Below are positions 32,984 to 59,284 of a stretch of DNA of 64,000 nucleotides, piece after piece (position 1 is the first letter of the stretch; each line of letters begins with the position of its first letter). A program made the translations under genes and the position numbers. This DNA comes from Candidatus Undinarchaeota archaeon (lineage in GTDB: Archaea; SpSt-1190; JASMDC01), in the NCBI GenBank assembly GCA_964519305.1, contig CAZFHY010000016.1, positions 32,001 to 96,000 on the forward strand, in the 5' to 3' direction. Under the pieces are notes generated by a model. That model saw only the letters and a program-made list of their open reading frames with translations, had not been told where the DNA came from and made no database searches.

Positions 32984-33685
32984 CTATGCCCGGCCGAACT
33001 GCTTGGGTTCCGTGGCCGATGCCGAGCTCGCCACGTGGATGTACTCCTGCTCCTGGTACTCCGTGAGCGGTACGGCACCGACCGCGAACATCCAGGTGAT
33101 CGGGTCCATCGTCACCGGGTCCGCGTCATCGACGAATAAGTTCAGCTCGCCGCCCGCCCTCAGCACCTGGGCGTTGAGCTTCTTATCGTCGGTGTGGAAG
33201 GCCTTGTAGTATCGCCCCGCAACGGGATCGTAGTCGTAGACGGTGAACGACACCTCCATGTCGGTGTTGGACATGCTCGTTTGGAGCAGGCCGACGATCT
33301 GGTTCTTGTTATCGGTGGATACCAGGGTGGAGAACTGGAGCGGGTCGGTGTACCCTCCACCCCAGTACATGTCCGCGCCGACACCGATCACCTTGATGGG
33401 CTGACCGGTCGTGGGATCGGCGACGGTGAGGTCCGACCTCATCTGCTGGCCCGCGATCTTGAGGGAGTTGACGTGGAACACCGTGCCCTGGTAGCCTTGA
33501 TCGAAGTTGAAGACCTGTTCCATGTCACAGGTGTACATGTACTCCACGTTCGCAGGTGGTGCCTTCGCTTCCTCTCCGGGCGCGGCCGGGCTCAGGTACC
33601 CGCTGTTGATCACGATAGCGACAACGACGAGGCATACAGCCACCAGCGCGTACTTGGCATGTTCATCCATTCCCACGGTAATCAT
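32984..33685 (-). CDS. PPAN-leader protein with conserved beta-rich hypothetical domain
   Basis: Hydrophobic leader ...VAIVINSGYL...APPAN then globular domain; start MITVG (33685) or MDEH (33670); TTTTTAT about 30 nt upstream. Confidence 0.75.
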   Translation of the reverse strand: MITVGMDEHAKYALVAVCLVVVAIVINSGYLSPAAPGEEAKAPPANVEYMYTCDMEQVFNFDQGYQGTVFHVNSLKIAGQQMRSDLTVADPTTGQPIKVIGVGADMYWGGGYTDPLQFSTLVSTDNKNQIVGLLQTSMSNTDMEVSFTVYDYDPVAGRYYKAFHTDDKKLNAQVLRAGGELNLFVDDADPVTMDPITWMFAVGAVPLTEYQEQEYIHVASSASATEPKQFGRA

Positions 33686-33860
33686 CTCACGCCGACCGCT
33701 CGTGGTCAACACATAAAAAACCGACCTCATCCCGCACCGTCCGTCCGGCGAGGTCGGGAGTTCCGTGAACGTTGAACGGGGGCCCCAAAAGGCCTCGGAA
33801 TGAGGTCTTTTTTTCATCCAGCACCTATTTATGGCAGCCACACCATGACTTACCGTACGT

Positions 33861-34586
33861 ATGGTCGACACCAGATACGTACTGGCTGCGGTCGGGCTCC
33901 TTATCCTCGGTGCTATCCTCTCCATCAACTGCACGACCGGAGTGGACGTCGCAGCGATCGGGAGCGACGACGCTAGCGTCGAGGTCATCGGCGGCAAGTA
34001 CGAGCTGGAACTGTTCACAGCAGAGATAGGTCACGGCCCTGCTGCACGCGAGATCACACGGATGCGGTACACAGTGGGCAACCGCACCATCGTCCCCGAC
34101 CAGACGCTCCCGCGCTCCATGCGCCCCGGCCTCGACTGGCTGCAGAGGAACACGCTGGAGGGCGACTATGTCCTTGCCTGGTGGGACTACGGTCATGCAA
34201 TCCGCGCCTACGGCGAACGCGAGCCGGTGATCGATGCGCCCTCGAAGGAGCTTATGCCGCTGACGGTGTCCAAGTACATCGGGATGTCCGCGGACGACAT
34301 TATCTGCCCCGACTGTGCGCCCCACGCGCTCGTCCGGGACGTGGCAAAAGCCCTGCTCACCGACGATCCCGCCGTTACTAGAAAGATCATGAAGTCCCAC
34401 GGTGCACGGTACCTGTACATACACGCCGATGACGCCACCAAGGCGGACGCTTTCTTCATCGCAGCAGGACGTGAGCCGGGGCAGGTGAAGGGGACGGTCC
34501 TGGGCAAGGCGTTCGTCGGATCACGGCTCGACGGGTACTGGCTGGTGTACTCGGACGCCACGGTGCACATCTACGAGATCGCGTGA
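33861..34586 (+). CDS. stand-alone AglB/STT3 C-terminal (WWDYG) domain with N-terminal signal/TM
   Basis: LDWLQRNT...VLAWWDYGH.I....R; DVAKALLTDD...GARYL; lacks the multi-TM catalytic domain. Confidence 0.82.
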   Translation: MVDTRYVLAAVGLLILGAILSINCTTGVDVAAIGSDDASVEVIGGKYELELFTAEIGHGPAAREITRMRYTVGNRTIVPDQTLPRSMRPGLDWLQRNTLEGDYVLAWWDYGHAIRAYGEREPVIDAPSKELMPLTVSKYIGMSADDIICPDCAPHALVRDVAKALLTDDPAVTRKIMKSHGARYLYIHADDATKADAFFIAAGREPGQVKGTVLGKAFVGSRLDGYWLVYSDATVHIYEIA

Positions 34587-34590
34587 GCGC

Positions 34591-34959
34591 CTACGGCGGC
34601 TTTCTCATCTTTTCCCACTCAATATCATCGGTCCGGTATCCTGCCAGCCAGATTCTCTCTAATAGGTCCGCTCTTTCCGCGCTCGTAAGCTCCTGGCTCG
34701 ACTCGGCCCAGTCCATCAGGTTATCCAGTTGGAACAGGAAATCATCCCTTTCTTTTTCAGTGAACCCCCACCCAACCTTATTACGCAACGTCATCTCGAT
34801 GTATTGTAATTGCTGAATGTTCTCGAACTTGGTCCAGCTGTTCGCCGGAGGTGCCTGTTCCTGGTCCCGTGTACCCAGGCTCTTGAGGACGAGCACGTTG
34901 GACGCGAGCGACAGCACGGTGAGCACGAGGACGGTGCGGAGAAGGGTCCGGTCGTTCAT
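34591..34959 (-). CDS. PPAN-leader small secreted/membrane protein (helical cargo)
   Basis: MNDRTLL...SLASNVLVLK...APPAN leader. Confidence 0.8.
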   Translation of the reverse strand: MNDRTLLRTVLVLTVLSLASNVLVLKSLGTRDQEQAPPANSWTKFENIQQLQYIEMTLRNKVGWGFTEKERDDFLFQLDNLMDWAESSQELTSAERADLLERIWLAGYRTDDIEWEKMRKPP

Positions 34960-35027
34960 GATGTGTGTGCGAGCGTTCGGTTTTTTATGTGCGATGCCGG
35001 CGGGGTCCGCGTCTACCGCCGCTACCG

Positions 35028-35375
35028 TCAGCTGTTCGCTTCCACGACCGTGCTCAGGTTATCGATTATCGATCGCAGCTGGACCTTTTCCACTTCATTG
35101 AGCTGTTTACTCGAGATGATCCTTTCTTTCAGGTCGTTCAGTTGGTCCAGGATATCATCCCTGTCGCCCTCGCTGATGTTCCCGTTGGAGATCAGCTGCT
35201 GCACACTGGACTTGATCTGCAGTATTTCGCGGAAGAAGGCTGCTGACGCGGCGCTGTTCGCCGGTGGCGCTATCTCCTGCTCCTGCGTGCCCAGGCTCTT
35301 GAGGACTAGCACGTTGGACGCGAGCGACAGCACTGCGAGCACGAGGACTGCGTGGAGAAGGGATCGGTCGTTCAT
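35028..35375 (-). CDS. PPAN-leader small secreted/membrane protein (helical cargo)
   Basis: MNDRSLL...SLASNVLVLK...APPAN leader. Confidence 0.8.
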   Translation of the reverse strand: MNDRSLLHAVLVLAVLSLASNVLVLKSLGTQEQEIAPPANSAASAAFFREILQIKSSVQQLISNGNISEGDRDDILDQLNDLKERIISSKQLNEVEKVQLRSIIDNLSTVVEANS

Positions 35376-35418
35376 GGTGTGTGTGCGAGCGTTCTGTTTT
35401 TTATGTGCGATGTCAGGA

Positions 35419-35826
35419 TCAGCCCCGGAACCCCAGACCCCTGAGGAGGTCCCTGAGCTCCCAGATCACGGCCTTCACGTCCTCCTTCGAACGCTGGTCC
35501 ATGACGAGCTCCCTCAGTTTGCGGGCGGTCTGGTCTAATTCGAGATGTACGGGCGATCTCGGAAGGTTATCGAGACGGTTCTCGAACTCGAACACCTCCA
35601 TCAGGACCTCGTCGGTCCCGTTGTTGGTGAGGAGCATTCCCTCGTCGACCATGACCTCGATCTTGAACAGCATCCTCTCCAGATCTCCCACCATGTAGGG
35701 GAGGTAGTTCGCCGGCGGCGTCAATGCATCCTCGGAGGCCCTCAGGTCCTTGAGTACGAGCACGTTGGTCGCGAGCGACAGCACGGCGAGCACGAGGACG
35801 GCGCGAAGAAGGGAGCGGTCGTTCAT
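35419..35826 (-). CDS. PPAN-leader small secreted/membrane protein (helical cargo)
   Basis: MNDRSLL...SLATNVLVLK...TPPAN leader. Confidence 0.8.
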   Translation of the reverse strand: MNDRSLLRAVLVLAVLSLATNVLVLKDLRASEDALTPPANYLPYMVGDLERMLFKIEVMVDEGMLLTNNGTDEVLMEVFEFENRLDNLPRSPVHLELDQTARKLRELVMDQRSKEDVKAVIWELRDLLRGLGFRG

Positions 35827-35922
35827 GGTGCGGGTGTGGGCGGTACCCTTTTTATGTCCGACACCCCCGGGGAAGGCTTAAATACCCGGGTCCGGCGCGC
35901 GGTCTGTCAGGACGGAGTTCAC

Positions 35923-36396: not shown

Positions 36397-36454
36397 TGAC
36401 GCCCGCTCCGGTAACGAGTGGTTTTTTATTGATTAGAGCCCTTCTGCGGTAGCG

Positions 36455-37531
36455 GTGGAAGGGAAGAAGGAGCCAAAGACCGAGCCTGAGCCCGAGTCTA
36501 GGTCAAAGCCTGATGCTAAGCCCGTGCCCAAGCCCCCGCCCGTGCCCGAGCCTGAACCCGAGCCCGGGGAGGATGTAGCAGGGCCGGACCGACCTCCGAA
36601 ATGGAAGGAGGGCATGAGGAAGGGGTTCGTCATCGGGATCATTCTTTCACTGGTCTCCATCGGTGTCTTCGGCGAGAGCACGATACATCATCATATCAAT
36701 GATCCCATCTGTACCTACCTGGGTTTCATCTCTGACTGTGATACCTGGGTCGGGTCCTGTCCCAGTGATACTTGTAGGTACGTTCTAAAGCCCCTCCTGC
36801 TGATCATCGAGTTCGCCCTGGTCGGCGCATTCCTTGGCTGGGCCCTCTACGAATTGAGCAGCACCGTCCTCCCCTCCTGGAAGAAGGGCATGGTCGTGTT
36901 CTTCGGGATCGGATGTGGCCTCTCGGTGTTCGATCCTCTCTACCTGTACTACCCGATCAAGAAGGTCATCGGTTACCTGGTCCTGTTCCCCGTCCTGGGA
37001 GCGTTCGTCGCCTGGCTCATTGAGAAGGAGTGGCGTCATGAAGCGAGCGATGTCACGGTGGGACCGGACTGGTTGAAGGGCCTCCTGCTCGGCATCGTTC
37101 TCGCCCTCGTGGCCACCATCGTTCTGTCCGAGACCCAGAATGACACCCATATCATGCAGGTACAGTTCACGCTCTATGTCCTCCCGAGCCCGCTGCTCTT
37201 CGCCTGCGCCAGCTGGCTCATCGGCAAGAAGTGGTACGACGGGGACCGGGGCGTTGTCGGTCAGGCGTTCTGGAAGAAGAGCCTGACGGCAGGTCTCGTG
37301 CTCGGTCTCCTTCTTGCGGTCATGCCCAGGGACAGCCTCTTGATCCTCGTCCTGCTGATGGATTCTCTGGTCTTCATACCATTCGCCATCATCGGATGCG
37401 GCACGGGCATCCTCTGCTTCGGGCACGGGGCCGAAGCGATCGTGTTCTACCTCGCACCGTTCACGCTCCCCGTCGGATGCGCCATGATCGGCGCGTTCGC
37501 CGGCTGGGTGTTCGACAAGTGGTACACCTGA
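36455..37531 (+). CDS. polytopic membrane protein with four internal repeats
   Basis: Pro/Glu/Lys-rich N-terminus; repeated W-x-K-G...G-A-F-x-x-W units. Confidence 0.75.
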   Translation: MEGKKEPKTEPEPESRSKPDAKPVPKPPPVPEPEPEPGEDVAGPDRPPKWKEGMRKGFVIGIILSLVSIGVFGESTIHHHINDPICTYLGFISDCDTWVGSCPSDTCRYVLKPLLLIIEFALVGAFLGWALYELSSTVLPSWKKGMVVFFGIGCGLSVFDPLYLYYPIKKVIGYLVLFPVLGAFVAWLIEKEWRHEASDVTVGPDWLKGLLLGIVLALVATIVLSETQNDTHIMQVQFTLYVLPSPLLFACASWLIGKKWYDGDRGVVGQAFWKKSLTAGLVLGLLLAVMPRDSLLILVLLMDSLVFIPFAIIGCGTGILCFGHGAEAIVFYLAPFTLPVGCAMIGAFAGWVFDKWYT

Positions 37532-37636: not shown

Positions 37637-38230
37637 TCATGCAAGCTCCTCCAGATGACGTTGGTGCTCGCCGTACTCCTCAAGGACGGACTTGATGAAG
37701 AGCGCGTCGTCGAAGGACGACCGCGCCCAGAGCACCTTGTGGTTGCGGGCGAGCGTCGCCCTGATCCTGATGGGCAGGTGGTTGATGATCGTCACCTCCA
37801 CTTTTTTAGGGAGCTCGCCATATAAGCGCAGCAGCGCTTTCGTACCACTTTCGGATGAGGGCTCCTCCCGGAACAGGATGCCGATGTCGACGTCCGAGCG
37901 CCAGATAGCGGTGCCGTCGGCATAAGAGCCAAACAGCACGATGGCCAGTACATCTGGGAACACCTCGTCCTCCTGAATGGCGCACACGCTCTTATCGATG
38001 ATGCGCTTGATCGTCTGCCCGGACTTGAGCTCTAGCTCGTCAGGCGCAAGTTCCCTGCACGCCGCGATGAACCTGAACTTCGCCCGGATGTCCCGTGAGA
38101 GACGGTTTCGCTCCGACTGGGTGAGCGGGAGGCCAAGAAGCTGCCTGCGGACGATGGCGATCTCCCGGGCACCGAGGACCTTTCGGGCCTCGGGTAGCTC
38201 GAGGAGGCGTTCAAGTCTCATTATAACCAT
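37637..38230 (-). CDS. nucleotidyltransferase (MNT/Pol-beta-like) with N-terminal extension
   Basis: LFGSYADGTA..RSDVDIG; N-terminal LTQSERNRLSRDIR. Confidence 0.85.
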   Translation of the reverse strand: MVIMRLERLLELPEARKVLGAREIAIVRRQLLGLPLTQSERNRLSRDIRAKFRFIAACRELAPDELELKSGQTIKRIIDKSVCAIQEDEVFPDVLAIVLFGSYADGTAIWRSDVDIGILFREEPSSESGTKALLRLYGELPKKVEVTIINHLPIRIRATLARNHKVLWARSSFDDALFIKSVLEEYGEHQRHLEELA

Positions 38231-38401
38231 TATTTAGGTTATTTTTCTATATATAGCTATCCCCGACGTATGGAGGAGGACCGTAGGACTACCGCCGGTC
38301 GTCACTGAAGCATATAGTTCGGTACGGACACTTCTATCACTAGGTGATCATAAGGCGAATGTATATAACTACGGATATACTATGAATATTGAGGCATTTT
38401 T

Positions 38402-38653
38402 ATGACATCCGTTACGATCCGGTTCCATGGTGTGCAGGAGCAGATACTCGAGCGTATCCTGGAGAGCGGTATCGCGGAGACGAAGAGCGAGGCGATCCGG
38501 ATGGCCGTGCTGAAGTTCGGCATGGATATGGGTCTCATATCGGACCTGACCGTGTTCCATACCATACAGGACGACTTGGAGTCCAGGAAGCAACCGATCC
38601 GGAGAGTGCTCGAGGATATCGAGCGGGTGAAGGATGAGACTACTGTTCGATAG
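38402..38653 (+). CDS. ribbon-helix-helix protein (antitoxin-like)
   Basis: VTIRF...ILERILESGIAETKSEAIRMAV RHH pattern. Confidence 0.75.
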   Translation: MTSVTIRFHGVQEQILERILESGIAETKSEAIRMAVLKFGMDMGLISDLTVFHTIQDDLESRKQPIRRVLEDIERVKDETTVR

Positions 38654-38687
38654 CTCTGTCAAGAGCGTGTATCCGAGCGATTACTGA
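38634..38687 (+). pseudogene. truncated PIN/VapC toxin remnant
   Basis: ATG overlapping the RHH gene 3' end reads MRLLFDSSVKSVYPSDY*, a PIN-like first strand. Confidence 0.45.
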
Positions 38688-38698
38688 GTAGAGCCGTT

Positions 38699-39184
38699 TC
38701 ATCGCTTCCCGGCAAGTCGCCCCAGCTCGTCGCCGGTCAGCCGGTACACGGTCCACTCGTCCATGGCCTTGGCCCCGATCGCCTCGTAGAAGTCGATGGC
38801 AGGCTTGTTCCAGTCCAGCACCCACCACTCCAGCCGCCCGCACCCCCTATCCACGGCAAGGGCTGCAAGGTGTGCGAGCAGTTTCTTCCCGAAACCCTTC
38901 CCGCGGTGGGCAGGCCGGACGTACAGGTCCTCGATGTAGAGGCCGTGACGACCGAGGAACGTGGAGTAGTTATGGAAGAACAGGGCGTGCCCCACGGGCT
39001 TTCCGTCGAGCTCGGCGATGACGACCTCGGCCTCCTTGCGGTCGAAGATGGAAGCTTCGATGGCCTCTACGTCGGCAACGACCTCGTGAAGGAGCTTCTC
39101 GTACTCGGCCAGCTCCCGGATGAACCCGAGGATGGTCGCGGCGTCGGTCCGTACCGCAGGCCTGATGGTGAACCCGTCGTCCAT
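38699..39184 (-). CDS. GNAT acetyltransferase (SSAT/PaiA-like)
   Basis: IRELAEYEK, NYSTFLG, YIEDLYVRP.HRGKGFG, VLDWNKPAIDFY. Confidence 0.93.
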   Translation of the reverse strand: MDDGFTIRPAVRTDAATILGFIRELAEYEKLLHEVVADVEAIEASIFDRKEAEVVIAELDGKPVGHALFFHNYSTFLGRHGLYIEDLYVRPAHRGKGFGKKLLAHLAALAVDRGCGRLEWWVLDWNKPAIDFYEAIGAKAMDEWTVYRLTGDELGRLAGKR

Positions 39185-39269
39185 GGTGTGATGTGGGGAT
39201 GTAATCAATAAGAAGTTACGGTCTTCGTTCGTTGCGCCCCTGAGCGCGTTCGGGGCGTCAGGTGGAGTT

Positions 39270-42060
39270 TGTGATTTCCTGCTTGGATTGGGTGGTGGGT
39301 TATGGATAATTTCTATTCAGCTATGTGTGAGCTAATGCTATTTAATTTCATAATATTCTTAAATGTAAATATATCTATACTCTTCATATTCAATAATGAT
39401 GTGATTGGTTAAATTCGAAATTTATTAAAACAAGGTCTGGTCTGTTATTTCCTTACCCAAGGAAGGAAAGCAGGATGTGCAAAATGAACAGAAGTAACTT
39501 CCTTTTAGAAGTCAGTCTTCTCGTAATAATCCTTTTTTATGCTCCTGTGATTGTCGGAGGTCTTGAGACATCGGAGTCAATCTCCACTAACGGAGAAAAC
39601 CAAAAGACTATATCATTGGACACATCTATCAACATATTATTCTCTCTTGAATGGGGGCGGGAAGGCAGGGACGATGGCGAATTCGATTTACCCATAGATG
39701 TCGCAGTTGATAATGAAGGGAGAGTCTACATCGCAGATGCAGACAATGACCGGATTCAAGTGTTCGATAATGAGGGAAGGTTCATTACTAAATGGGGTTC
39801 TCGGGGACGATCTCAAAGTGACTTATGGAATCCTCATAGTGTGGCTGTCGATAAGGATGGCAATGTCTATGTCGTAGACCAGATGAACGAACATGTTAAG
39901 GTCTTTAATCCCGAGGGTGCCTTGGAAAAGGTATGGGATCATGTCGAAATGAGACCTATGTACGTTGCTGTCGGACAAAATGATAGAATATATGTAGTCG
40001 AATTCATTAGTCATAGGATTAGGGTCTTTTCCCCGGATGGTACATTATTGCAGACATGGAACCGTGGAAGAGGGGTGAGTCGGTTGACTTATCCGCACGG
40101 GATTGCGGTTAATGGGAACGGTACTGCGTTTGTTGTTGATCGTAATGACCGTATTTTAGTATTCGATAAGAAAGGTAACTTCATAAGAGCAATGGGCCAG
40201 CCTGGCTCTGAAGACGGCGAATTCGAGACTATCCTTGATATTGCATTAGATAATAATGGGAATCTCTTCTTGGTTGATAAAGGAAATAGTCGGATTCAGG
40301 TGTTGGATCAGAACGGTACTTTTCTCATGAAATGGGGTATTCTTGGGAGTGAAGAAGGTGAGTTCAATTATCCTTCTGGAATAGCGATTGATAAGAATAA
40401 CAATGTATACATAGCGGACAGGAAGAATTATCGTATCCAGAAGTTCATTCGAGTTAATACCGAGACCGATTGTTACACTGATAATGACTGTGCCCATGAC
40501 AAGGAATGCATGAACGGAAGATGCATACCATTAGTCTGTGATGTCGATACGATAGCTTGTGATCACCAATGCATGAATCAAGAGGGTGGGCGCTGTTGTG
40601 ATGGTGAGTGGCGTCATGATGTCGAGTGTTGTAGGAATGAGGAATGTAAAGGTGGCTTCTTATGCATCTCCAATACATGTATGAGGACTGGTTCTTTCTC
40701 ACCAGAGGAAGCCAGTCCGTGGCTCCGGGATGTACTGGAGTTCAATCATTATGAGCTCTTACATGGCATCACAGATGGTTACGTCGCATTCTTACTTGCC
40801 CGCGAGCGTGATCAATCTCTTACCTATGGAAACAAGACTCGGATAATTATCCGTGTCGAACTGTTCAACGATGATCTCTTGTATCGGGTCATTGGAGAGG
40901 TATATGGAACAAACAGTATGGCCTTCACTCGCCCAGACCTCATTATACTCAATGATGAATGGGGACATATCCAGCGGATTATTCGTATGAACGACACAGT
41001 ATTGACTCAGGAGCATGAATTGCGAATTGATAATACTACATCAGTGTCATCAGATGGATTACGGTTCTTACTGCATAGGCCAAAGAGAATAACTTACGTA
41101 GAGAGCGTGGCGCCATATAGGATTATCAAGAATATTCCACTCGAATTCGAATCCTACTTCTGCTCAAGTTATGGTAATATGGTCGCGGTGGTGCCCTTCA
41201 ACGAAAGACGCGTTGATGTCTACAACAACACAAATCATTCTATGATACTGTCCTCGCCGGAATTCAATGAGGGACTCACGTCAGTACTCGTCCACGACAA
41301 TCGTGCATATGGTGGTACACAAAAGGGACGTCTTGTAGCATGGAACCTTACAAGCGAATCTGGGGAGCGGGTGATGTCGGGGCATACAGGCGCTCTACAG
41401 GCACTTGTAGCTGACGATCTTTACGTGTACTCTGGTGGGGTTGATGGTGTTATCATCGTCCGTGAAACCGACACGCTTTTCGGACGCTTCAGACTGCGGG
41501 GTCACGAGGCGCCAGTAAAAGGAATCATTCCCCTAGGCGAACGAATTCTTACATTCGATAACACTACAATACGATTGTGGGAGCGACCGCGACGTCATAG
41601 CCCAACAGTCGTGACTCCGGCGATAAACATCACGCAAAGACCAATCCTGACCCCAAATGAGACTCTCGATCAGAATGTCACCGATGCCTTATCTATTAAC
41701 GACGTCACGAGTCACCCTATAGAACGAGAATCCGTTTGCGGTGATGGTATGTGTGGTGACAGTGAGAGCTCTGAAGCATGTTGTCAGGATTGCGGCTGTT
41801 CTCCCGGAATGAAGTGCGTCGATGATGTCTGTAGAACATCCTCGGTACCAATATGGATCACACCAGATCCCGATGAGGGTATCCATACTGATTCGGAAGA
41901 ATCCACTCACTCATCCGACCTAAGGCCCGCAGCGGGAACGATTAGTGTATTATTACTATTGGGAATTGTGGCAAGTTCGCAACTAATAATGAAGAAAGGA
42001 TAGTGTAGTGGGAACTCCCTTGTACAAAAAGGATGTGTAGGATTGATACGTCTGCACTTC
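39270..42060. other. low-GC island
   Basis: Abruptly AT-richer sequence and codon usage; very AT-rich at 39300-39450. Confidence 0.75.
39475..42003 (+). CDS. surface protein: signal peptide, NHL-repeat propeller, Cys-rich repeats, WD40-like repeats, C-terminal TM
   Basis: Repeats of F..P.DVAVD..G.VYIAD..N.RIQVF; GHTG/GHEA WD-like units; CGDGMC..ES...CCQDC; C-terminal hydrophobic helix + KKG. Confidence 0.88.
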   Translation: MCKMNRSNFLLEVSLLVIILFYAPVIVGGLETSESISTNGENQKTISLDTSINILFSLEWGREGRDDGEFDLPIDVAVDNEGRVYIADADNDRIQVFDNEGRFITKWGSRGRSQSDLWNPHSVAVDKDGNVYVVDQMNEHVKVFNPEGALEKVWDHVEMRPMYVAVGQNDRIYVVEFISHRIRVFSPDGTLLQTWNRGRGVSRLTYPHGIAVNGNGTAFVVDRNDRILVFDKKGNFIRAMGQPGSEDGEFETILDIALDNNGNLFLVDKGNSRIQVLDQNGTFLMKWGILGSEEGEFNYPSGIAIDKNNNVYIADRKNYRIQKFIRVNTETDCYTDNDCAHDKECMNGRCIPLVCDVDTIACDHQCMNQEGGRCCDGEWRHDVECCRNEECKGGFLCISNTCMRTGSFSPEEASPWLRDVLEFNHYELLHGITDGYVAFLLARERDQSLTYGNKTRIIIRVELFNDDLLYRVIGEVYGTNSMAFTRPDLIILNDEWGHIQRIIRMNDTVLTQEHELRIDNTTSVSSDGLRFLLHRPKRITYVESVAPYRIIKNIPLEFESYFCSSYGNMVAVVPFNERRVDVYNNTNHSMILSSPEFNEGLTSVLVHDNRAYGGTQKGRLVAWNLTSESGERVMSGHTGALQALVADDLYVYSGGVDGVIIVRETDTLFGRFRLRGHEAPVKGIIPLGERILTFDNTTIRLWERPRRHSPTVVTPAINITQRPILTPNETLDQNVTDALSINDVTSHPIERESVCGDGMCGDSESSEACCQDCGCSPGMKCVDDVCRTSSVPIWITPDPDEGIHTDSEESTHSSDLRPAAGTISVLLLLGIVASSQLIMKKG

Positions 42061-42110
42061 CGAACCCTCAGCAATCCTTATATACCGGCCATCGTGCCGC
42101 ACGCATCCTC

Positions 42111-42962: not shown

Positions 42963-42981
42963 GGACTTCGGGCCGGATGGC

Positions 42982-44028: not shown

Positions 44029-44153
44029 GATGCGTCACGACGGGGGGAAGGGATAAAAGCCTATTGACGAGCGTCGGCGCGTGGTCCTGAGCGCATCTGC
44101 CTATTTACCTGATACGCCCCTCGTGCTGGCCAGGACGTCGAGGGGACCGGCTC

Positions 44154-44504: not shown

Positions 44505-44650
44505 GGCCGGTACGTGCGATACGCATCGTTATAAAGGGATGTCAGGCCGTGCCGTGCCCATCTGATCCCTGGTCGAGCGTGTACCCGGTATATCCCGGCC
44601 TGCGCACCCCCGGTCATATACATAAAGGATAGTGCCCGGATCACCTGACC

Positions 44651-46745: not shown

Positions 46746-46775
46746 GTTCTCTTCACTCTCTTGCGGACCTCGGTC

Positions 46776-51292: not shown

Positions 51293-51294
51293 GG

Positions 51295-52369: not shown

Positions 52370-54514
52370 CTACGCGATGACCATCGAGACCTTGTCCTTC
52401 ATGGACTTCAGGGTCTCTCCGAGCTTCTTCTGGCGAACACGCAGTCGGATGACGTCCTTCTTGACGTCCTCGAGGTCCGCTGCTGCCGAGATGGCGTCGC
52501 CCATGGAGAGCCGGATGCTCTCGTTCTCGGTCTTGACCACACGCATCTCCTTCTCGAACACTTCGAGGCGCCGCTCGACCTTGTGGACCACGTCGTCCAT
52601 GAGGTCGGTCCCGCTACCGAGCGTCTTCTGGAACGCGCCGATCTTCTTGGCCAGCTCCTCGCCGGTGTACAGCACCTTCTGCTGGAGGCGGAACAGGTCG
52701 TCGATGCGCTTGTCGTGCTCGTCGATGGTCTTGCCGATCTCGCGGGAGCGCAGTGAGCCCAGCTCCAGGTCGTTGCGGTTGGCCAGCTTGGTGACGTCGC
52801 CCAGCGCCTTGGTGAGGGTGGTCATCGCCTCCTCGGCACGGTCGATACGCTTGAGCTCGCGCTCGTTCTTCGAGATGCGGCTCTCCACGCCGGTCACGAG
52901 CCGGCCGACCTTCCGGGTCATGGTGACCACGTTCTGGAAGTCGGCGCGCAGGGGGTCGAGGTTCTCGACCTTGAGCTCGAGCTTGGTGACCCTGGGCGGT
53001 AATGCGTTGAGCCCCTTGAACTGGTCCAGGAGCTTGGAAGATATGGCGATGAGGTCCTTGATCTGTGTGCCGTGCTCGTTGAGGTCCTCGCGGATGGCGG
53101 CGGTCTCCAGGCTGGTGGCGGCCTTGGACATGAACTCCTTGACCCGCATGAGGTCCTTGGAGATGGGGTCGATACCGTCGTTCTTGACGTCCTCGATCCG
53201 GTTGAGGGCCTCTACCTGGTTCGACTTGGTGAGCACCTCGACCGAGTTGAGCCGGTCGGTCAGCACCTTGGTGGAGTCGCCCAGCTGGTCCTCGATACGG
53301 GACACGCGTCCGACCAGCACCTCGCTGGTCCGTGACCTCTCGTCCAGCTCGGTGAGCTTGGAATCGACGCCGGAGAAGCGGTCGTCCATGATGGTGTTCA
53401 TGGTGCCCATGCGCTCGCCAAGGCGGTTCTCGGCAGCGCTCATCCGGGCGTCCACGCGTTCTTCGAGGCGGTTGACGGAGTCGTCCACGTCCACGCCGAG
53501 CGAAGTCTCGAGCGCGGAGAGCTTGTCGCCCAGCGGTGAGATCTGGCTCTCCACCAGACCTTCCAGCCGGGTGAGGCGGGCCTCGAGGTCGGGCGTCGAC
53601 TGGAGCTTCTTCTCCACGCCCTCGACCTTCTTGTTCAGGCCGCTGACCCAGGTCGAAAGCGGGTCGAGCTTGCCGTCCACACGCGATTCCAGGCGGGACA
53701 TGGTCTTGTCGACATCGAGCGTGACCTTCTCCTTGATCATGGCCACGTCATCGCGGAGCGGGCTGACCTGCTTGTTCAGGCTGTCCTCCAGCGTGTCGAC
53801 GCGCTTGGTGAGGTCGCTGAACGTGGCTGCCCGTTTCTCCAGAGCCTCCATACGCGCGCCGATGCGGGCGTCGATCCGTTCCTCGATGGAGCTCTGGGAG
53901 TGGGTGATTGCCTCGGGCACGAAGTCCTTGATGGACCCGGTGATCTCCTCGACGCGGGCGATCCGCTCCTCCAGGCCTTCCTGGACGTTGACGATACGCT
54001 CACCCAGCCCCTCCTGGACCGTGTCGATGCGGCCCGAGATGGGCTGCAGCTGGTTGTTCACCAGCTTCTCCAATAGCGTGATGCGGTCGCGCACCGCTGC
54101 GATGGACTCCTGACCCTTCTCGATGGGCTCGAGCCGGGTGACGACCTTCTTCTCGACCTTGGCCGATGACTTGTAGATCTCGATCTCCAGCGACTCGCGG
54201 AGCGAACGCAGCTCGTCAGAGATGGCCTTGATGGCGCCCTCGTTCTCCTGCGACGTGCGGCCCATCCGCTCTTCGACGGCCAGATAGTCCTCGGTGGACT
54301 TGAGCCCTTCCTGTTCGATCTTGACGAACCGGCCCTCGAGGTTGTTGAAACGCTCCACGAGAGCGGACGTCTTGTCCCCCTCGCTCAGCGCTTTGAGCAG
54401 TACCTGTCGCTGTTGGTTGGAGAACGCCTCGATGGCCTGGATGGCCTTGGAGAATGCGTGCATCTTATCCTCGATGGACAGGATTCTTTTATCGAGAGCA
54501 ATATCAGGAACCAC
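52370..54514 (-). CDS. long coiled-coil protein (714 aa)
   Basis: Continuous heptad-like E/K/L/R pattern; no ATPase motifs or TM. Confidence 0.8.
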   Translation of the reverse strand: MVPDIALDKRILSIEDKMHAFSKAIQAIEAFSNQQRQVLLKALSEGDKTSALVERFNNLEGRFVKIEQEGLKSTEDYLAVEERMGRTSQENEGAIKAISDELRSLRESLEIEIYKSSAKVEKKVVTRLEPIEKGQESIAAVRDRITLLEKLVNNQLQPISGRIDTVQEGLGERIVNVQEGLEERIARVEEITGSIKDFVPEAITHSQSSIEERIDARIGARMEALEKRAATFSDLTKRVDTLEDSLNKQVSPLRDDVAMIKEKVTLDVDKTMSRLESRVDGKLDPLSTWVSGLNKKVEGVEKKLQSTPDLEARLTRLEGLVESQISPLGDKLSALETSLGVDVDDSVNRLEERVDARMSAAENRLGERMGTMNTIMDDRFSGVDSKLTELDERSRTSEVLVGRVSRIEDQLGDSTKVLTDRLNSVEVLTKSNQVEALNRIEDVKNDGIDPISKDLMRVKEFMSKAATSLETAAIREDLNEHGTQIKDLIAISSKLLDQFKGLNALPPRVTKLELKVENLDPLRADFQNVVTMTRKVGRLVTGVESRISKNERELKRIDRAEEAMTTLTKALGDVTKLANRNDLELGSLRSREIGKTIDEHDKRIDDLFRLQQKVLYTGEELAKKIGAFQKTLGSGTDLMDDVVHKVERRLEVFEKEMRVVKTENESIRLSMGDAISAAADLEDVKKDVIRLRVRQKKLGETLKSMKDKVSMVIA

Positions 54515-54575
54515 AGCTCTAACCCATTGGAAGATACCTACTCTTCCTTTATAAAATGTTGGGCGCGGCCGCCGT

Positions 54576-56720
54576 TTACTCTCCCTGACCGGTGAAGTAG
54601 AACCGCTCTGCCCAGGGTTTGGGGAGCTGGGCGACGTCCCGGTGGCTCATGCCGCCTGCCCACATACCAGGCGCGACGGCCTTCTGGGCACCTGCTGTGC
54701 TGTACAGCGACTCCATGAACGTGGCCCGTGCGCCCTGGTAGAGGAACGAGCGGTCCATGGCCGAGTAGAGACCCTCGTTGGGGTACTCGCTCAGGCTCTG
54801 CTGTTCCGCCTTCTCCTTGTAGTACTCGCCCGAGGCCTGGTCGTAGCCCCACTCCTTGGCCACACCGAGCTCGGACCCGTACTTGGCGTAGAAAGGCTCG
54901 GCACCCGCGGTGACCCAGTTGGCGAGCGTCTGCTCGGTGTCCTCGGTACCGCCCTCGCCGGGCTCGATCGTGATGACGGGCACGTCCTCGATGATGCCCT
55001 TGCTCTTGGCCTCCTTGAGCTTCTTCTTGATGTCGTCCATGAGGCCGGGGTGCTTCTGGGTGATGGCATCGCCCCGCGAACCCATGGCCACGTGCTGGTG
55101 AGCTGTCCCACCGTAGGCGTTCACGGGTCCACCAGAAACGTGGACGTTGAAGAGCGGAACGCCGGGGAGCTTTTCCCCGGTCTCGGGGTCGACCTCCGGC
55201 TTCTGCAGCTCCTCCATGAACTTGACCGGGTCCTTTCCGGTGGACGCGTGGAGGATGTCGTAGGTCATCCCGATGACCTTCTCCGGGTTCTTGATGCCCT
55301 TGCGCTTGGCGATCGCCCAGATCTGCTTGAGCGCCTTCTTGAAGTGGATGGGCTGGGAGAAGTACGGCGAACCCAGCACACCGGTGGCGAGGTTCGTCAT
55401 CTCCATGTTCTCGAGGCCGATCTTGGTCTCGCCCTCGTTGAGCACGGACTTGATGTCCTCGTCGTCCAGAAGGATCTCGAAGGACTTGGTGAGCGTGGTG
55501 AGGAACGTCTTCTCGGTAATGGGCTTGTACCGCGCGTCGAACCCTCGAAGGCCGGGGTTCCACTTGTTGGCCTGCTCGCGCAGGTGCTTGAGCCCGGTCT
55601 TGCCGTCTTTCAGCAGGTAGTCCTCGACGAGGTCGGGGGTGAGATGGAGCTGGTTCACGTCGACTCCCTGGTCGTTGGCGATCTGCTCCTTGATAGAGGC
55701 CAGCTGCTTGCCCACGGTGTCGACGACGTTGTTATCGCCGCCGGGACCACCGCCTCCGCCACCGCCGCCCGCGCCGCCACCGAGGAAGGGTGCAAAAGCA
55801 CGTTCCGCGTACGGCCGCACGTGTGCCGGCGAGGCGTCCTGGTAGGGTCCCCGGTCCGACAGGGCGGAACGGAACCCGGCCTTGGCCAGCGCCGTGATCT
55901 CGGCCTTCTTCTCCTCCTCGGAGAGCTTGGGGTTCTCGGCGATCTTGGCCGACATGTGAACGAAATTGTTGAAGTGCTCCTGGGCTATGGCCATGGGGAG
56001 ATGGTTCTCCTTGGCCTCTTTGTAGAACCCGAAGAGCTGGGTCATACCCTGCAGGAACTTCATGTACAGCTCGATGCCCGTAGAGTAGATGGCTGCATCG
56101 ACCTCTGCGGCCCCCTTGCCGAAGGCCTGTTCCAGGGTCCGGCGCATGTGCGCCTTACGCCAGGCTTCCATCTGCTTGAAGTACTGTGGAGTGTACCAGC
56201 CCACCCGCTCGGCGGTCTCGTTGCGCTGGCTCATTTCCGCCTCGCCGCCGCCGTACCATGGCGCGCGGGTCTCGGGCGTGAAGAGAACGGTGTCGAAGAA
56301 GGCATTGCCGCCCTGCATGGTGGTGGGATGGACGGTGACCACGTTGGCCTTGATATCCCGGGCATATAGAAGGGTGTGTTTCAGCTCCCGGATCGACTGC
56401 ATTCTCTTGTTGGGCGTGGGCCAGGTAAGGTCCACCGATAGACCTGCGTGGACGGTGGCCTCGCCACCCATCTCCTCCACGATCTCGCGTACCTGCTGGC
56501 GCTGCCAGATCGGGACGTCCTCTGCCTTGGTGTCCTCCGGACCCTTTCCGGTCCACCGGAACATGCCGATTTCGGCGTTGACGACGCCCGTCTCGAAGGT
56601 CTTGCGCAACCGGTCGAGGATCATACCTTCCTCGGTCTTCGGAGTGACCGACGCCGACGGCCTTGTCGGCAGGTCCTTCATCCAGTTCTTGGCACGCTTC
56701 TTCAGCTCTTCGAAGCCCAT
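54576..56720 (-). CDS. xylose-isomerase-like/AP-endonuclease-2 TIM-barrel protein with large insertions
   Basis: EIG, TVHA, VTVHP, IGLENM, GMTYDILHA, NVHVS, ITIEP metal-site pattern. Confidence 0.65.
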   Translation of the reverse strand: MGFEELKKRAKNWMKDLPTRPSASVTPKTEEGMILDRLRKTFETGVVNAEIGMFRWTGKGPEDTKAEDVPIWQRQQVREIVEEMGGEATVHAGLSVDLTWPTPNKRMQSIRELKHTLLYARDIKANVVTVHPTTMQGGNAFFDTVLFTPETRAPWYGGGEAEMSQRNETAERVGWYTPQYFKQMEAWRKAHMRRTLEQAFGKGAAEVDAAIYSTGIELYMKFLQGMTQLFGFYKEAKENHLPMAIAQEHFNNFVHMSAKIAENPKLSEEEKKAEITALAKAGFRSALSDRGPYQDASPAHVRPYAERAFAPFLGGGAGGGGGGGGPGGDNNVVDTVGKQLASIKEQIANDQGVDVNQLHLTPDLVEDYLLKDGKTGLKHLREQANKWNPGLRGFDARYKPITEKTFLTTLTKSFEILLDDEDIKSVLNEGETKIGLENMEMTNLATGVLGSPYFSQPIHFKKALKQIWAIAKRKGIKNPEKVIGMTYDILHASTGKDPVKFMEELQKPEVDPETGEKLPGVPLFNVHVSGGPVNAYGGTAHQHVAMGSRGDAITQKHPGLMDDIKKKLKEAKSKGIIEDVPVITIEPGEGGTEDTEQTLANWVTAGAEPFYAKYGSELGVAKEWGYDQASGEYYKEKAEQQSLSEYPNEGLYSAMDRSFLYQGARATFMESLYSTAGAQKAVAPGMWAGGMSHRDVAQLPKPWAERFYFTGQGE

Positions 56721-56816
56721 CTGGGTTCACGTCCTTGTCTATCCGGTCCTTCTTATCCGTTCGTTCTGTTCTTTACAGTGGTACCTCCGCTAGATAAGGT
56801 TTGTGGTTCCTGGTCC

Positions 56817-57662
56817 TTAGACCGCCAGGTACTTGAAGACGCTCTCGTTGCGCATCTCGAAGTCGTGTCCACCGGACACCTGCGGGTTCTTCACGGGCTC
56901 CATCCACTTGAACGACTGGCTTTCTGTGTCGTACACGGGGGTGTATGGCTGGCGCTTGACGCGCACGCCGTCGTGGTAGTCGGAGTCCATGGCCGACCAG
57001 GACTTGCGGTCGGTGGGCCGGAGGTCCATATCCATCTCGGCGAAGTCGGCCGAGTAGCAGTTGATACCCTTCGCGACGGGCTCCCCCCAGGGGTTAAGGA
57101 GGTAAGACTCGCCTATACCGAGGTACACGCTCTGCTTGTCGCTGTCCTCGCTCACGGGCTGAGTGACCGTGACGAGGTCAAAGTAGTTGACCTGGATCTT
57201 GGCGCCATCCGGCGTTTCCATTTCGATGACTATGTCATCGGCCTTGTCGAGTTCGTCATCCTTGAGGACGCGGCCCTTGTCGTCCAGGGCGTAGGCCCTG
57301 GCGTTCTTGGCCTCTACGTACTTGCCGTCCTTGTTAGGCATGACAAAGTGACCGTTCTCTGCGACGTACTTGATACCGACCCCGTCCTTGGTGCCGGCGT
57401 AAAGGTTAGCGGTGACGTTACCCTCTAGGTAATCCTTGGGCTCGGCCCCGAAAAGGGCAGAGTAGGCGTTGTCCTTGTAGACGTCGTAGACGTTGCGAAG
57501 GAGAGAGAGAGGGCCACGGTAAATGGACTTCTGGATGTCGTTTGTAATAGGATCTGACCCCCCCCGCTCGCGGTCCATCTCCGCGCGGTACGAGTCAACC
57601 CATCCATCAAGGCCATCCATCATAATTTGTAACCCCCGTTCGTCACCAGACGATAGTAACAT
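56817..57662 (-). CDS. hypothetical acidic protein (start may be 57623)
   Basis: Long ORF with TATATAAG upstream, co-oriented with two downstream genes. Confidence 0.65.
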   Translation of the reverse strand: MLLSSGDERGLQIMMDGLDGWVDSYRAEMDRERGGSDPITNDIQKSIYRGPLSLLRNVYDVYKDNAYSALFGAEPKDYLEGNVTANLYAGTKDGVGIKYVAENGHFVMPNKDGKYVEAKNARAYALDDKGRVLKDDELDKADDIVIEMETPDGAKIQVNYFDLVTVTQPVSEDSDKQSVYLGIGESYLLNPWGEPVAKGINCYSADFAEMDMDLRPTDRKSWSAMDSDYHDGVRVKRQPYTPVYDTESQSFKWMEPVKNPQVSGGHDFEMRNESVFKYLAV

Positions 57663-57765
57663 AGTGTCGTTTGTTCTTTATATAGTTTTCCTATTAACCC
57701 CCTTTTCGAACCAATCTAGTTATAATCTTCGCACCGATAAATACCTTTCCCATGGGTGGTATCGC

Positions 57766-58002
57766 ATGAAGCTGGACGGATTTCTCGAATCTCGTATCAA
57801 CGACCTCGGCCCGGATGATGTAGTTGAGATCATTGTGATCGTGCAGGGGGACCTGAGTATGGACGAGATAAGGCCTGCACTCTCCGAGTACGACGTCGTG
57901 GAGGAGTACCCCTTCAGCCGCTCGTTCCTTATTCGGGCCAACCGTGCAGCTATCCGTGCTCTCGAGGGCAAGGATTTCGTGGAGGCCATCAACGAGGCGT
58001 GA
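57766..58002 (+). CDS. stand-alone subtilisin-propeptide/I9-like small protein
   Basis: VEIIV...YDVVEEYPFSRSF.I......IRALE..DFVEAI pattern; GATAAATA upstream. Confidence 0.55.
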   Translation: MKLDGFLESRINDLGPDDVVEIIVIVQGDLSMDEIRPALSEYDVVEEYPFSRSFLIRANRAAIRALEGKDFVEAINEA

Positions 58003-58124
58003 CACTCTGTCACTCATTTCGTATCCTCTCATTATTCAGTTGCATTTAAAATTCGGAAGAATTGGCTGAATTGGGCTCTAAATCGGATGTGAACGGCGTA
58101 TTAAGCTCTGGTTCTTTAAGGAGC

Positions 58125-58181
58125 GAGTCTAGATTTATAAACAACGAATCTCGCAGGCGAAGGACTTTTAAATCTAGGCTC
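58125..58181. promoter_or_regulatory. 16-bp imperfect inverted repeat upstream of wHTH gene
   Basis: GAGTCTAGATTTATAA (58125-58140) versus TTTTAAATCTAGGCTC (58166-58181); 14/16 complementary; 25-nt spacer. Confidence 0.55.
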
Positions 58182-58245
58182 TGACTAAGATTTGCTACGA
58201 GGGGAAAGCAATTTCCCCCTCACCCCCAGCAAGGAAGGAAATACT

Positions 58246-58557
58246 ATGGCTAGAGAGGAGAAGGACGAATTATTGGGCCTCTTTTTCAAAAAGAAGGCTA
58301 CAAAGATCTTTCTTTCGCTAAATGGAGGCGGTCCTCCCGTGCGCTACGTTCGTGCCATCTCGAAGTGCGCCGATACGGAGTACGCCCACACGCTGCGCGT
58401 CCTTCAACGGTTCCGGGAAATGGGGCTGGCTAGCACCATCAAGCTGGGTCGGACCAGGCTCTACGAGCCTACCGAAAAGGGTGAAGAGGTCGCTGACCTT
58501 ATCGATAGTGTCATCGAGACCGCGGACGACCACGCCGAGCACAAGCACCACAACTAG
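58246..58557 (+). CDS. winged-helix transcriptional regulator
   Basis: YVRAISK..DTEYAHTLRVL......GL....KLGR.R....TEKGEEVA. Confidence 0.82.
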   Translation: MAREEKDELLGLFFKKKATKIFLSLNGGGPPVRYVRAISKCADTEYAHTLRVLQRFREMGLASTIKLGRTRLYEPTEKGEEVADLIDSVIETADDHAEHKHHN

Positions 58558-58618
58558 CACCGCGTTCGGCGACAACGTACCTCTACCGTGGCAGGATCAC
58601 CGTTGTCGTTATACTGCA

Positions 58619-59284
58619 CTAGATCGGTGCGTTCAGATTGATGTCCCAGCCGAACTCCACGTCCCCCATGGCAGCGCCGGTCCTGTGGTCGGTCTCCGTG
58701 TAGGCTATCTTGATGGTACCGGGATTGAACCTGATCTCCTCGAGCATGCGGGGGCCGCTGCTGCTGGTTGCGGACATCACCACGTACGTGACAAAGACGT
58801 CCTTGAGCTCCATTCTGAAGTACACCGCCTTATCGGTCGTGGGCCGGGCCAATTCGATGACCACCTTCTCGACGTGACTTCCCTTGGTGGAGGCTTCGAA
58901 GAGCTTCACGCTGGACTTGTCAAGCCACTTGGTGATGATGACCTCGTGGATATCGGCCCTCTCGGAGGAGCGGGCGCCGCCGCTGCTGCGGGTACTGGCC
59001 TGTGACTGTGTTACGCCGAAGGTGAGGGCGTTTGCCTCGATCCATCCAGGATGATTGTGATCCGTCGACCCTCCCGGGATATCGGCGATCTGGACGAATA
59101 TGTCGGCCCCGCCCCCAAATGAGCCACCCACGTTGGAGGGCGGGTTAAGGGGGTTGACCGACGCTTCCATCCCGCTCTCGCGGGCGGGTGCGCCGGAAAC
59201 GGTACCTGCCATGTAGGCGAACAGCCCGAGGTTGAGCAGACACACGACGAGTATCAGATAGAGCAGCTTCTCGCTGGATGACAT
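58619..59284 (-). CDS. Hcp (T6SS tube)-family domain fused to PPSN leader
   Basis: DIFVQIADIPGGSTDHNHPGWIE...FGV.Q; ITKWLDKSSVKLFEA..KG.H; YFRMELKDVFVT; EEIRFN...IKIAY; FGWDI..N; CATATAAAG about 25 nt upstream of ATG 59284. Confidence 0.9.
   Translation of the reverse strand: MSSSEKLLYLILVVCLLNLGLFAYMAGTVSGAPARESGMEASVNPLNPPSNVGGSFGGGADIFVQIADIPGGSTDHNHPGWIEANALTFGVTQSQASTRSSGGARSSERADIHEVIITKWLDKSSVKLFEASTKGSHVEKVVIELARPTTDKAVYFRMELKDVFVTYVVMSATSSSGPRMLEEIRFNPGTIKIAYTETDHRTGAAMGDVEFGWDINLNAPI

Follow-up and report, generated by a model that had tools for sequence, protein, structure and literature searches.

Leaders ending in P-x-N in an Undinarchaeota archaeon, with a legumain-type peptidase as their probable processing enzyme

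Introduction

Why should genes coding for quite unrelated proteins all begin in the same way? The question is raised by a stretch of 64,000 nucleotides (hereafter the window) from a Candidatus Undinarchaeota archaeon (assembly GCA_964519305.1, contig CAZFHY010000016.1; G000:C16:32001-96000, G000 being the source genome), in which eight genes carry in front of their cargo a hydrophobic helix, a polar tether and a P-P-x-N motif. A preliminary description of the window took this N-terminal part, called here the leader, for a dedicated sorting or processing signal that feeds a variable set of secreted proteins, possibly an Hcp-based surface tube with small effectors. We report that the leader defines a genuine gene family, which is under selection, confined to its lineage and not described in Pfam or NCBIfam. 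We also propose, as the probable reading, that the leader serves as an N-terminal signal-anchor carrying a processing site of the legumain type, and that this site is recognised by a peptidase in which a periplasmic-binding-protein (PBP) domain is fused to a C13 domain. The source genome (3.63 Mb, 42 contigs, ~60% GC, 99.83% complete) was compared with 40 relatives, namely one genome of the same genus (G001), 15 of the same class and 24 of the same domain.

Results and Discussion

Eight genes with one N-terminal architecture

All eight genes are present where the preliminary description had placed them, as recomputation of coordinates and motifs confirmed. They are listed here and named below by their start positions.

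32984-33685, minus strand: divergent transmembrane (TM) helix, tether, PPAN at residues 43-46 (codons 33548-33559), beta-rich cargo; recognised by cargo homology
34591-34959, minus strand: canonical leader (34840-34959), PPAN at residues 37-40 (34840-34851), helical cargo of 80 residues; recognised by the leader hidden Markov model (HMM)
35028-35375, minus strand: canonical leader (35256-35375), PPAN at residues 37-40 (35256-35267), helical cargo; leader HMM
35419-35826, minus strand: canonical leader (35707-35826), PPAN at residues 37-40 (35707-35718), four-helix cargo; leader HMM and AlphaFold2 (AF2) model
42982-44028, minus strand: canonical leader (43900-44028), PPAN at residues 40-43 (43900-43911), Hcp-like cargo; leader HMM and PF05638
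44154-44504, minus strand: canonical leader (44376-44504), PPAN at residues 40-43 (44376-44387), six Cys after the Asn; leader HMM
44651-44962, plus strand: canonical leader (44651-44785), PPLN at residues 42-45 (44774-44785), nine Cys after the Asn; leader HMM
58619-59284, minus strand: Hcp with an N-terminal TM helix, tether, PPSN at residues 48-51 (59132-59143), probable distant member; PF05638

In all eight products a hydrophobic helix is followed by a polar tether and then by P-P-x-N, which reads PPAN six times, PPLN once and PPSN once. Six of them, those of the 34959, 35375, 35826, 44028, 44504 and 44651 genes, start with M-[ND]-D-[RK]-[TS]-L. Every gene has its own A/T-rich, TATA-like box ~20-38 nt before its start, in DNA of 60% GC.

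The assortment of cargos was likewise as described. Two are Hcp domains, with PF05638 matching the 59284 protein at E 4.8e-28 (residues 63-195) and the 44028 protein, partially, at E 3.5e-9 (residues 206-285); the Hcp-like cargo of the latter contains a long Ser/Thr-rich insert. The beta-rich cargo of the 33685 gene comes from a weak AF2 model (mean predicted local distance difference test score, pLDDT, 60), in which a helix at residues 8-29 precedes a disordered tether around PPAN and the cargo begins at about residue 70. The 35826 protein, which is 60% identical to P0017 of another assembly, is modelled with a leader helix at residues 3-32, a non-helical tether and four cargo helices (cargo pLDDT 84-93) that begin at residue 41, directly after Asn40; the cargos of the 34959 and 35375 genes align with it. 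The motif thus lies, in both AF2 models, in an unstructured tether, and the fold begins after it. The two remaining cargos, of the 44504 and 44651 genes, are the Cys-rich ones.

The leader HMM did not match the 33685 and 59284 genes. The cargo of the former is 25-32% identical to cargos that stand behind canonical leaders, with PPAN aligned, and the gene is therefore a family member with a divergent helix. Between the leader of the 59284 gene and the family the alignment is weak (hhalign probability 34%, E 4.3e-4), and we regard its membership as probable in view of its architecture, its indel behaviour and a parallel TM-APAN-Hcp gene elsewhere (see below). A likeness of the beta-rich cargo to Hcp was considered and not demonstrated, as hhalign against both Hcp proteins aligned the leader only; a fold search with this cargo returned nothing at E <= 0.001 (best E 0.12).

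The leader is a dedicated and selected module

An HMM built from 18 leaders and run on the 51,117 six-frame open reading frames (ORFs) of the source genome found 29 genes on ten contigs, and a separate genome search gave the same 29. The best match is the 44028 gene (E 1.3e-20), and ~4 further divergent members lie beyond the 29. An alignment of 24 leaders shows M1, the Asn and the Pro at the second position before it to be invariant and D3, L6, L11 and L18 to be nearly so; similarity ends at the Asn. Neither Pfam, run on the eight window proteins, nor NCBIfam, run on ten members (five of the window and five of other contigs), has a model that fits the leader.

The motif is kept beyond this genome. 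A search of 1,835,955,588 representative proteins gave 61 matches at E <= 0.001, 19 of them encoded by the source genome and 42 not. Pooled with the 29 genes they make 71 distinct sequences, of which 70 have P-x-N; the residue before it is P in 47 and A in 16 of these 70, and in 46 it has A in the middle. PPAN is rare in the source genome: a crude proteome (3,128 ORFs, 1.08 million residues) contains it 18 times, 14 of them within the first 90 residues, and 13 of these 14 are in family members.

Recent duplication does not account for this likeness. Among 28 leaders (342 of 378 pairs computable) the median number of synonymous substitutions per site (dS) is 0.97 and that of nonsynonymous ones (dN) 0.45. 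The conserved residues are coded by several synonymous codons, the Arg at position 4 by four different ones. Since synonymous sites are saturated between the paralogues, it is selection on the protein that maintains the leader. A subset of the genes has in addition a common promoter of ~40 nt, and some are also alike over ~100 nt further upstream. Immediately downstream of a family gene, at C26:31576-31640 (about 11576-11640 of locus L121), we noticed an orphan copy of this promoter with the first codons of a leader. The copy matches the start of the C26:35330 gene at 95% identity and is a trace of recombination of the 5' module or of its decay.

Known signals describe the leader poorly. A signal for Sec and signal peptidase I was rejected on sequence features: the hydrophobic stretch, of ~21-23 residues, is too long, no small -3/-1 pair stands by the helix, and the conserved P-P-A-N site lies 15-25 residues beyond it. 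The alignment of 24 leaders contains no twin-Arg, no lipobox Cys and no class III [KR]-G/A site, as the preliminary description had said. A sorting signal of the sortase, exosortase or archaeosortase type was discarded because the conserved module is N-terminal, not C-terminal, in 29 of 29 members. An N-glycosylation sequon at the Asn was also discarded, as two places on Ser is found in 4 of 70 sequences and Thr is outside the seven commonest residues.

Of the 29 members, 26 carry cargos of 12-303 residues. Three others are tandem leader-only minigenes (G000:C6:21084-21625, locus L004), ending one, two and six residues after the Asn. The first of them is extended N-terminally by ~40 residues rich in Lys and Glu, and another assembly has an orthologue of it, P0052. 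Some members have a further site: in the 44028 gene a second motif, A-P-A-N (43054-43065, minus strand), stands 23 residues from the C-terminus, with a two-Cys tail behind it. C26:30810-31565, P0036 and P0048 likewise have two P-x-N sites. These sequences suggest that some members may be cut twice.

A lineage-restricted family that comes and goes at its loci

The family is restricted to its lineage. The 42 matches outside the source genome come from few ENA/Logan assemblies and are rare (1-13 contigs each), their contigs being of a few lengths only, and the leader has no match in the 40 related genomes, G001 included. Pattern scans limited to the M-D-D-R-T-L-L type matched 13 stretches in genome contigs and 22 in metagenome contigs, none of which was confirmed. 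A profile of the leader-only minigenes run against 5.8 billion proteins returned just six sequences, known or nearly identical ones.

Comparison with G001 locates the differences. Flanking genes are 79-91% identical in DNA, and the family genes are absent: at the syntenic sites G001 lacks the 33685 gene, the trio 34591-35826 and the block 39475-44962. Between 58540 and 59317 the two genomes differ cleanly by a single gene, the 59284 Hcp gene with its promoter, and a target duplication is not evident. Neighbours of family genes are often toxin-antitoxin-like, as judged from their translations and from one Pfam hit.

The window stretch is present in eight DNA runs from two marine/seawater metagenome studies, and seven of these runs are possible sources of the DNA. 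Contigs from four of the runs cover it fully and hold no informative variant. One contig joins 35800 to 44049 (its shorter side being 21 letters) and, with several loose ends, resembles other leader paralogues.

Cargos and the place of Hcp

Cargos extend up to 477 residues past the Asn among the 71 distinct sequences. In the source genome most are Cys-rich, with 4-22 Cys, mostly in even numbers and often in C-x3-C spacing; others are helical, Hcp-like or CarboxypepD_reg-like domains, and some have Pro/Thr-rich ends. The even Cys counts, the Pro/Thr linkers and the CarboxypepD_reg-like domain indicate that the cargo is probably outside the cell. The long Lys/Glu-rich N-terminal extensions of leader-only relatives point the same way, as do the Lys-rich ends with which analogous leaders elsewhere begin.

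The suggestion that the Hcp proteins build a surface tube with effectors was not supported. The source genome has only two Hcp genes, both in the window, and in this 99.83% complete genome we found no match to the sheath family PF04984, to VipB (PF05943) or to gp25 (PF04965); VgrG and PAAR were not searched. A type VI or other contractile injection system was rejected on this ground, an Hcp tube protein being there without sheath, VipB and gp25. The leader carries many other cargos besides Hcp. Ordinary Hcp proteins of 165 residues, 44-47% identical, are the closest relatives of the 59284 Hcp domain, and one relative has a normal signal peptide. No toxin domain was found in the eight window proteins with Pfam or in the ten members with NCBIfam, and no immunity gene was identified, no systematic search for one having been made. 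A protein atlas search with a Cys-rich member gave no usable match. Nothing pertinent came from literature searches on Undinarchaeota together with Cys-rich proteins or on archaeal Hcp together with polymorphic toxins.

A candidate peptidase beside leader genes

Because the similarity ends at a conserved Asn, we sought an Asn-specific peptidase. Pfam searches on the neighbours of family genes revealed one, the best candidate for the co-occurring peptidase that the preliminary description had proposed to look for:

G000:C6:17724-19817: PBP-C13 peptidase of 697 residues, with a basic N-terminus, a TM helix, a PBP domain (PF13458, E 2.5e-31) and a Peptidase_C13 domain (PF01650, E 1.8e-50)

The protein matches human legumain at E 1.8e-35, and its residues R458, H459, H558, C600, S626 and D641 align with legumain R44, H45, H148, C189, S216 and D231. 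We take H148 and C189 of legumain to be the catalytic residues. H558 and C600 are invariant in 20 homologues of the archaeal protein, and most of the six key residues are invariant or nearly so. A review (PMC4357240) describes legumain R44, H45, S216 and D231 as forming the Asn-specific S1 pocket. With the His/Cys dyad and these S1 residues both present, the candidate fits peptidase family C13. As in legumain substrates, the Asn that is invariant in 24 of 24 leaders appears in the models to lie in an accessible stretch, a non-helical tether of low confidence. Our literature search, which did not cover supplements, found no study of the substrate of a prokaryotic C13 (legumain-type) peptidase.

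The peptidase gene stands in an operon-like island in the order Cache gene, PBP-C13, a gene for a 117-residue protein and an NHL gene. The 117-residue protein has itself a TM helix, a tether and APAN, followed by Ca-binding-type repeats, and the three leader-only minigenes lie divergently upstream. G001, which has no leader, lacks the island at the syntenic site, and its best C13 match scores 30.7 bits, against 175 in the source genome. In a second assembly a peptidase 84% identical to PBP-C13 (P0066), the leader-only orthologue P0052 and a leader-plus-Cys protein (P0185) share a longest contig size of 61,673 bases, which suggests the same linkage of peptidase and leaders in a second genome. 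The NHL-repeat protein encoded downstream of the peptidase (G000:C6:15643-17235; locus L122, 10643-12235, minus strand) carries an apparent archaeal class III pilin-like signal.

Modelling places the motif in the active site

We modelled the C13 domain (residues 430-697, with a 20-sequence alignment) together with the 50-residue leader of the 44028 gene (with a 24-sequence alignment). The complex scored 0.63 (0.65, 0.63 and 0.59 in separate runs), while the best of three controls scored 0.01. Of the 80 solved complexes 58 attain this mark, as do 2 of the 110 mismatched pairs. At least 80% of the contacts recur between runs, with a partner pLDDT of 50-56. The interface consists of leader residues 37 and 39-46, the PPAN stretch; the modelled Asn43 contacts H558, C600, S626 and D641, and the next residue contacts C600. 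The predicted pose of PPAN is substrate-like, and the model supports binding.

A similar association of genes in unrelated loci

Fusions of the PBP-C13 type are not confined to this archaeon: we counted 176 such proteins at E <= 1e-20 among 8,000 candidates scored, from Methanoregula, Methanospirillum, Thermoplasmata, Chloroflexota and others. Of 301 genomes searched two, both of Thermoplasmatota, had the peptidase. We scanned 80 metagenome loci with PBP-C13 (841,399 bases) for ORFs that have a start codon, a 19-residue hydrophobic window in the first 30 residues and [PA]P.N 3-34 residues on. The scan gave 31 hits, or 36.8 per Mb. Outside the family the source genome (3.63 Mb) gave 13 hits, or 3.6 per Mb, and at least five of them look like distant members; there was none in the reversed loci and one in 80 CDC48 loci (194,549 bases; the CDC48 gene of the window lies at 29960-32251). 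Genes of the TM-linker-[AP]PxN type are thus about tenfold enriched near PBP-C13 in unrelated loci.

The 31 hits are spread over 19 of the 53 closer loci (L146-L198). Twenty-six of them could be sorted by eye into at least six sequence types that recur across 14 loci; the genes often stand in tandem, at 0.4-3 kb from the peptidase. Many proteins of these types end 1-13 residues past the Asn, and others run into Cys-rich domains. One type, the second leader type (A8; 12 sequences, seven loci), has the same invariant Pro and Asn and loses its similarity at the Asn. In locus L166 a TM-APAN-Hcp gene (PF05638, E 5.3e-16) stands directly upstream of the peptidase, with the architecture of the 59284 gene. 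A Yip1-domain membrane protein ending in P-x-N plus two or three residues is encoded ~720-780 nt from the peptidase in L157, L161, L164 and L167, and a Yip1-domain copy is found ~3.3 kb from it in L177. Since the leaders of these loci begin with Lys-rich ends, their N-terminus is expected inside and the P-x-N outside, on the peptidase's side of the membrane. In locus L165 a frameshifted copy of the second-type leader (3697-3876) and a fragment of a second C13 C-terminus (4706-4906) were noticed beside the intact genes, which indicates local duplication and decay.

Proposed mechanism and its weak points

We propose the following scheme. Each leader gene would be transcribed from its own promoter. 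The short M-D-D-R end of the product would stay in the cytoplasm, the ~21-residue helix with its conserved Asn would span the membrane and the cargo would be outside. A flexible tether of 10-20 residues would end in P-P-A-N just before the folded cargo. The membrane-anchored, outward-facing PBP-C13 cysteine peptidase would bind P-P-A-N and cut after the Asn, so that the cargo is freed and the leader stub remains in the membrane. The released cargos would be mostly disulfide-type Cys-rich domains, together with helical, beta-rich, Hcp and other ones. The part of the preliminary description that spoke of a processing signal is supported by the selected P-x-N and by a candidate C13 enzyme; the topology, the cleavage after the Asn and the purpose of the system are what we infer.

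Several observations speak against this scheme. One peptidase gene would have to serve ~33 substrates, most of them unlinked to it. Cleavage leaves the conserved M-D-D-R, the Asn of the helix and the Glu behind the helix unexplained, features that may serve insertion, packing or docking. It also leaves the leader-only minigenes unexplained, for which the role of ligase donor, decoy or signalling precursor would fit equally well. No RNA run contains the window stretch. The score of the complex may reflect memory of solved legumain-peptide complexes, and the alignments used were of our own making. The contrast between the source genome and G001 is one of two related genomes only, and the linkage in the second assembly was read from equal sizes of the longest contigs.

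The comparison with other lineages has its weak points as well. The PBP-C13 architecture is widespread and often lacks a TM-linker-PxN neighbour: the scan gave no hit in the 27 loci L199-L225, and there is no such neighbour within 19 kb in G195 or within 14.5 kb in G139, two Thermoplasmatota genomes, the peptidase of G195 having Cache/HAMP/STAS signalling genes around it. The peptidase family is not tied to PxN partners everywhere. The scan recovers 16 of the 29 known members and so undercounts, and its hits were sorted into recurring and chance ones by eye. Between the leader of the source genome (A1) and the second type (A8) hhalign gave a probability of 13%, which does not demonstrate common descent of the two.

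Alternative explanations

How else could an anchored leader with a P-x-N site be understood? The C13 enzyme could be mainly a transpeptidase, which would form an acyl-enzyme on the leader Asn and join the anchored stub to an amine acceptor, the cargos being mere leaving groups. Proteins that end 1-13 residues past the Asn agree with this, as in the three minigenes of the source genome, P0052, P0053 and 17 cases near PBP-C13 elsewhere; donor substrates of ligases likewise have an Asn followed by a few residues. The relatives in the PDB also include peptide asparaginyl ligases and the GPI (glycosylphosphatidylinositol)-anchor transamidase, at E 1e-27 to 1e-33. Large folded cargos, of up to 477 residues past the Asn, suit release better, however; no acceptor is known, and sequence alone cannot tell a ligase from a protease. 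We consider this explanation unlikely. We give an equally low chance to its wider form, a ligation system based on legumain chemistry in archaea and bacteria, in which anchored peptides with P-x-N and a short tail would act as acyl donors to amine acceptors, or cargos would be swapped. PBP-C13 would then be sortase-like or GPI-transamidase-like with an N-terminal anchor, and the 29-gene family would be its largest known client set. It is quite unlikely, in our opinion, that the cargos stay on the cell surface with the leader as their permanent type II membrane anchor and P-P-A-N as an uncut hinge or docking motif. The long helix (~21-23 hydrophobic residues) and its conserved Asn would suit helix-helix packing, and the leader-only genes show that the module can stand alone. 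On the other hand, invariant P and N exactly where the similarity ends are hard to understand in a hinge, as are the repeated sites of some members and the linkage to an Asn-specific peptidase in several lineages; the complex model, moreover, puts the Asn in the S1 pocket.

A role in peptide signalling seems improbable to us. Here the peptidase would free short C-terminal tails in the manner of AgrD/AgrB, to be sensed by the binding-protein domain and by Cache, and the large cargos would be secondary. Some tails after the Asn are indeed short and aromatic or hydrophobic, the peptidase includes a fused binding-protein domain, and it has Cache genes beside it in G000 and G195; yet some tails have just one or two residues, 26 of the 29 members have cargos of at least a dozen residues, and the link to a receptor is hypothetical. 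Ordinary Sec signal peptides of recent paralogues, whose similarity would reflect simple descent, are hardly credible. The genes are clustered and some have promoter DNA in common, but the saturation of synonymous sites with the key residues kept, the presence of P-x-N in nearly all sequences, the unrelated cargos and the features by which a Sec signal was rejected above all contradict it.

Comparison with known systems

A close parallel to the proposed cleavage by PBP-C13 is legumain (asparaginyl endopeptidase), or vacuolar processing enzyme, which matures pro-proteins, Cys-rich plant peptides among them, and with which the system has in common the C13 domain, the His/Cys dyad, the S1 residues, an invariant Asn site and many Cys-rich cargos. 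The archaeal enzyme differs in being prokaryotic, PBP-fused, membrane-anchored and, as predicted, outward-facing, and in ending soon after the catalytic domain; its substrates differ in having a dedicated N-terminal membrane anchor and a site N-terminal of the cargo. GPI transamidase (GPI8) is also of family C13 (E ~1e-29 to 6e-33) and acts at the membrane on a TM-containing signal, but its signal stands at the C-terminus and the protein is transferred to a lipid anchor, an acceptor of a kind not known here.

In sortase, exosortase, archaeosortase and rhombosortase systems, too, one cysteine peptidase apparently serves unrelated proteins that have a motif, a TM helix and a charged end, and the families are lineage-specific and expandable. 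The leader, in contrast, is N-terminal and has the mirror order (charged end, helix, tether, motif), the enzyme is C13, and the mature domain would be the leaving group, so that release is expected and not anchoring. AgrD/AgrB and the double-glycine/C39 systems resemble ours in their small precursors beside a cysteine peptidase and in a conserved leader with a variable product; here there is no Gly-Gly, the anchor is a true TM helix, the peptidase family is another one and whole folded cargos are possible.

Polymorphic toxins share with the family a conserved N-terminal trafficking part, diverse C-termini and variable islands among toxin-antitoxin genes. The leader genes are, by contrast, small stand-alone units, without a known toxin domain in the members scanned. 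As for type VI Hcp, the likeness is that two cargos are Hcp domains; the differences are the N-terminal anchor, the P-x-N site and the absence of sheath, VipB and gp25 from the source genome.

If the link between leader and peptidase is true, it would add a new pair of sorting or processing signal and enzyme to sortase/LPXTG and archaeosortase/PGF-CTERM, with another enzyme family and the opposite polarity. It would also give a role to the widespread PBP-C13 fusion gene in methanogens, Thermoplasmata, Chloroflexota and others, and would explain membrane-anchored Hcp genes in organisms without type VI secretion. The family further suggests that this uncultured marine archaeon secretes a repertoire of Cys-rich proteins that changes fast. 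Finally, Asn-specific peptidases and ligases are valued in protein engineering, for which microbial versions with defined recognition motifs could serve.

Neighbouring genes and the genome

Beside the 34959 gene, window positions 33861-34586 (plus strand) encode a protein of 241 residues with an N-terminal TM helix and a WWDYG-type stretch, matched only by the STT3/PglB/AglB core (PF21436, E 1.9e-6). Going by its sequence, it looks like a stand-alone outer fragment of an oligosaccharyltransferase. We considered this AglB-like gene as specific to the family and rejected it, as it is kept (79% DNA identity) in G001, which lacks the family. Two further genes beside the leader trio had no DNA match found in G001: 36455-37531 (plus strand), for a multi-pass membrane protein of 358 residues without a Pfam match, and 37637-38230 (minus strand), for a nucleotidyltransferase (PF18765, E 4.9e-12).

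The GC content drops to 46-51% at about 38000-42000, against ~61%. The gene at 39475-42003 (plus strand) codes for an NHL-repeat, WD40-like protein of 842 residues with Cys-rich segments and a C-terminal TM helix, and was probably acquired, since it is absent in G001. NHL-repeat proteins recur by leader genes on contigs C6, C12 and C16. Three large genes at 52370-57662 (minus strand) adjoin the Hcp indel and have ~90% DNA identity in G001; their products are a 714-residue coiled-coil protein, a second protein of 714 residues with a weak xylose-isomerase-like TIM match and a poly-Gly run, and one of 281 residues.

The Candidatus Undinarchaeales are a group known for small genomes, and the 15 other sampled genomes of the assigned class measure 0.6-1.2 Mb, against 3.63 Mb here; a large-genome member of such a lineage would be notable in itself.

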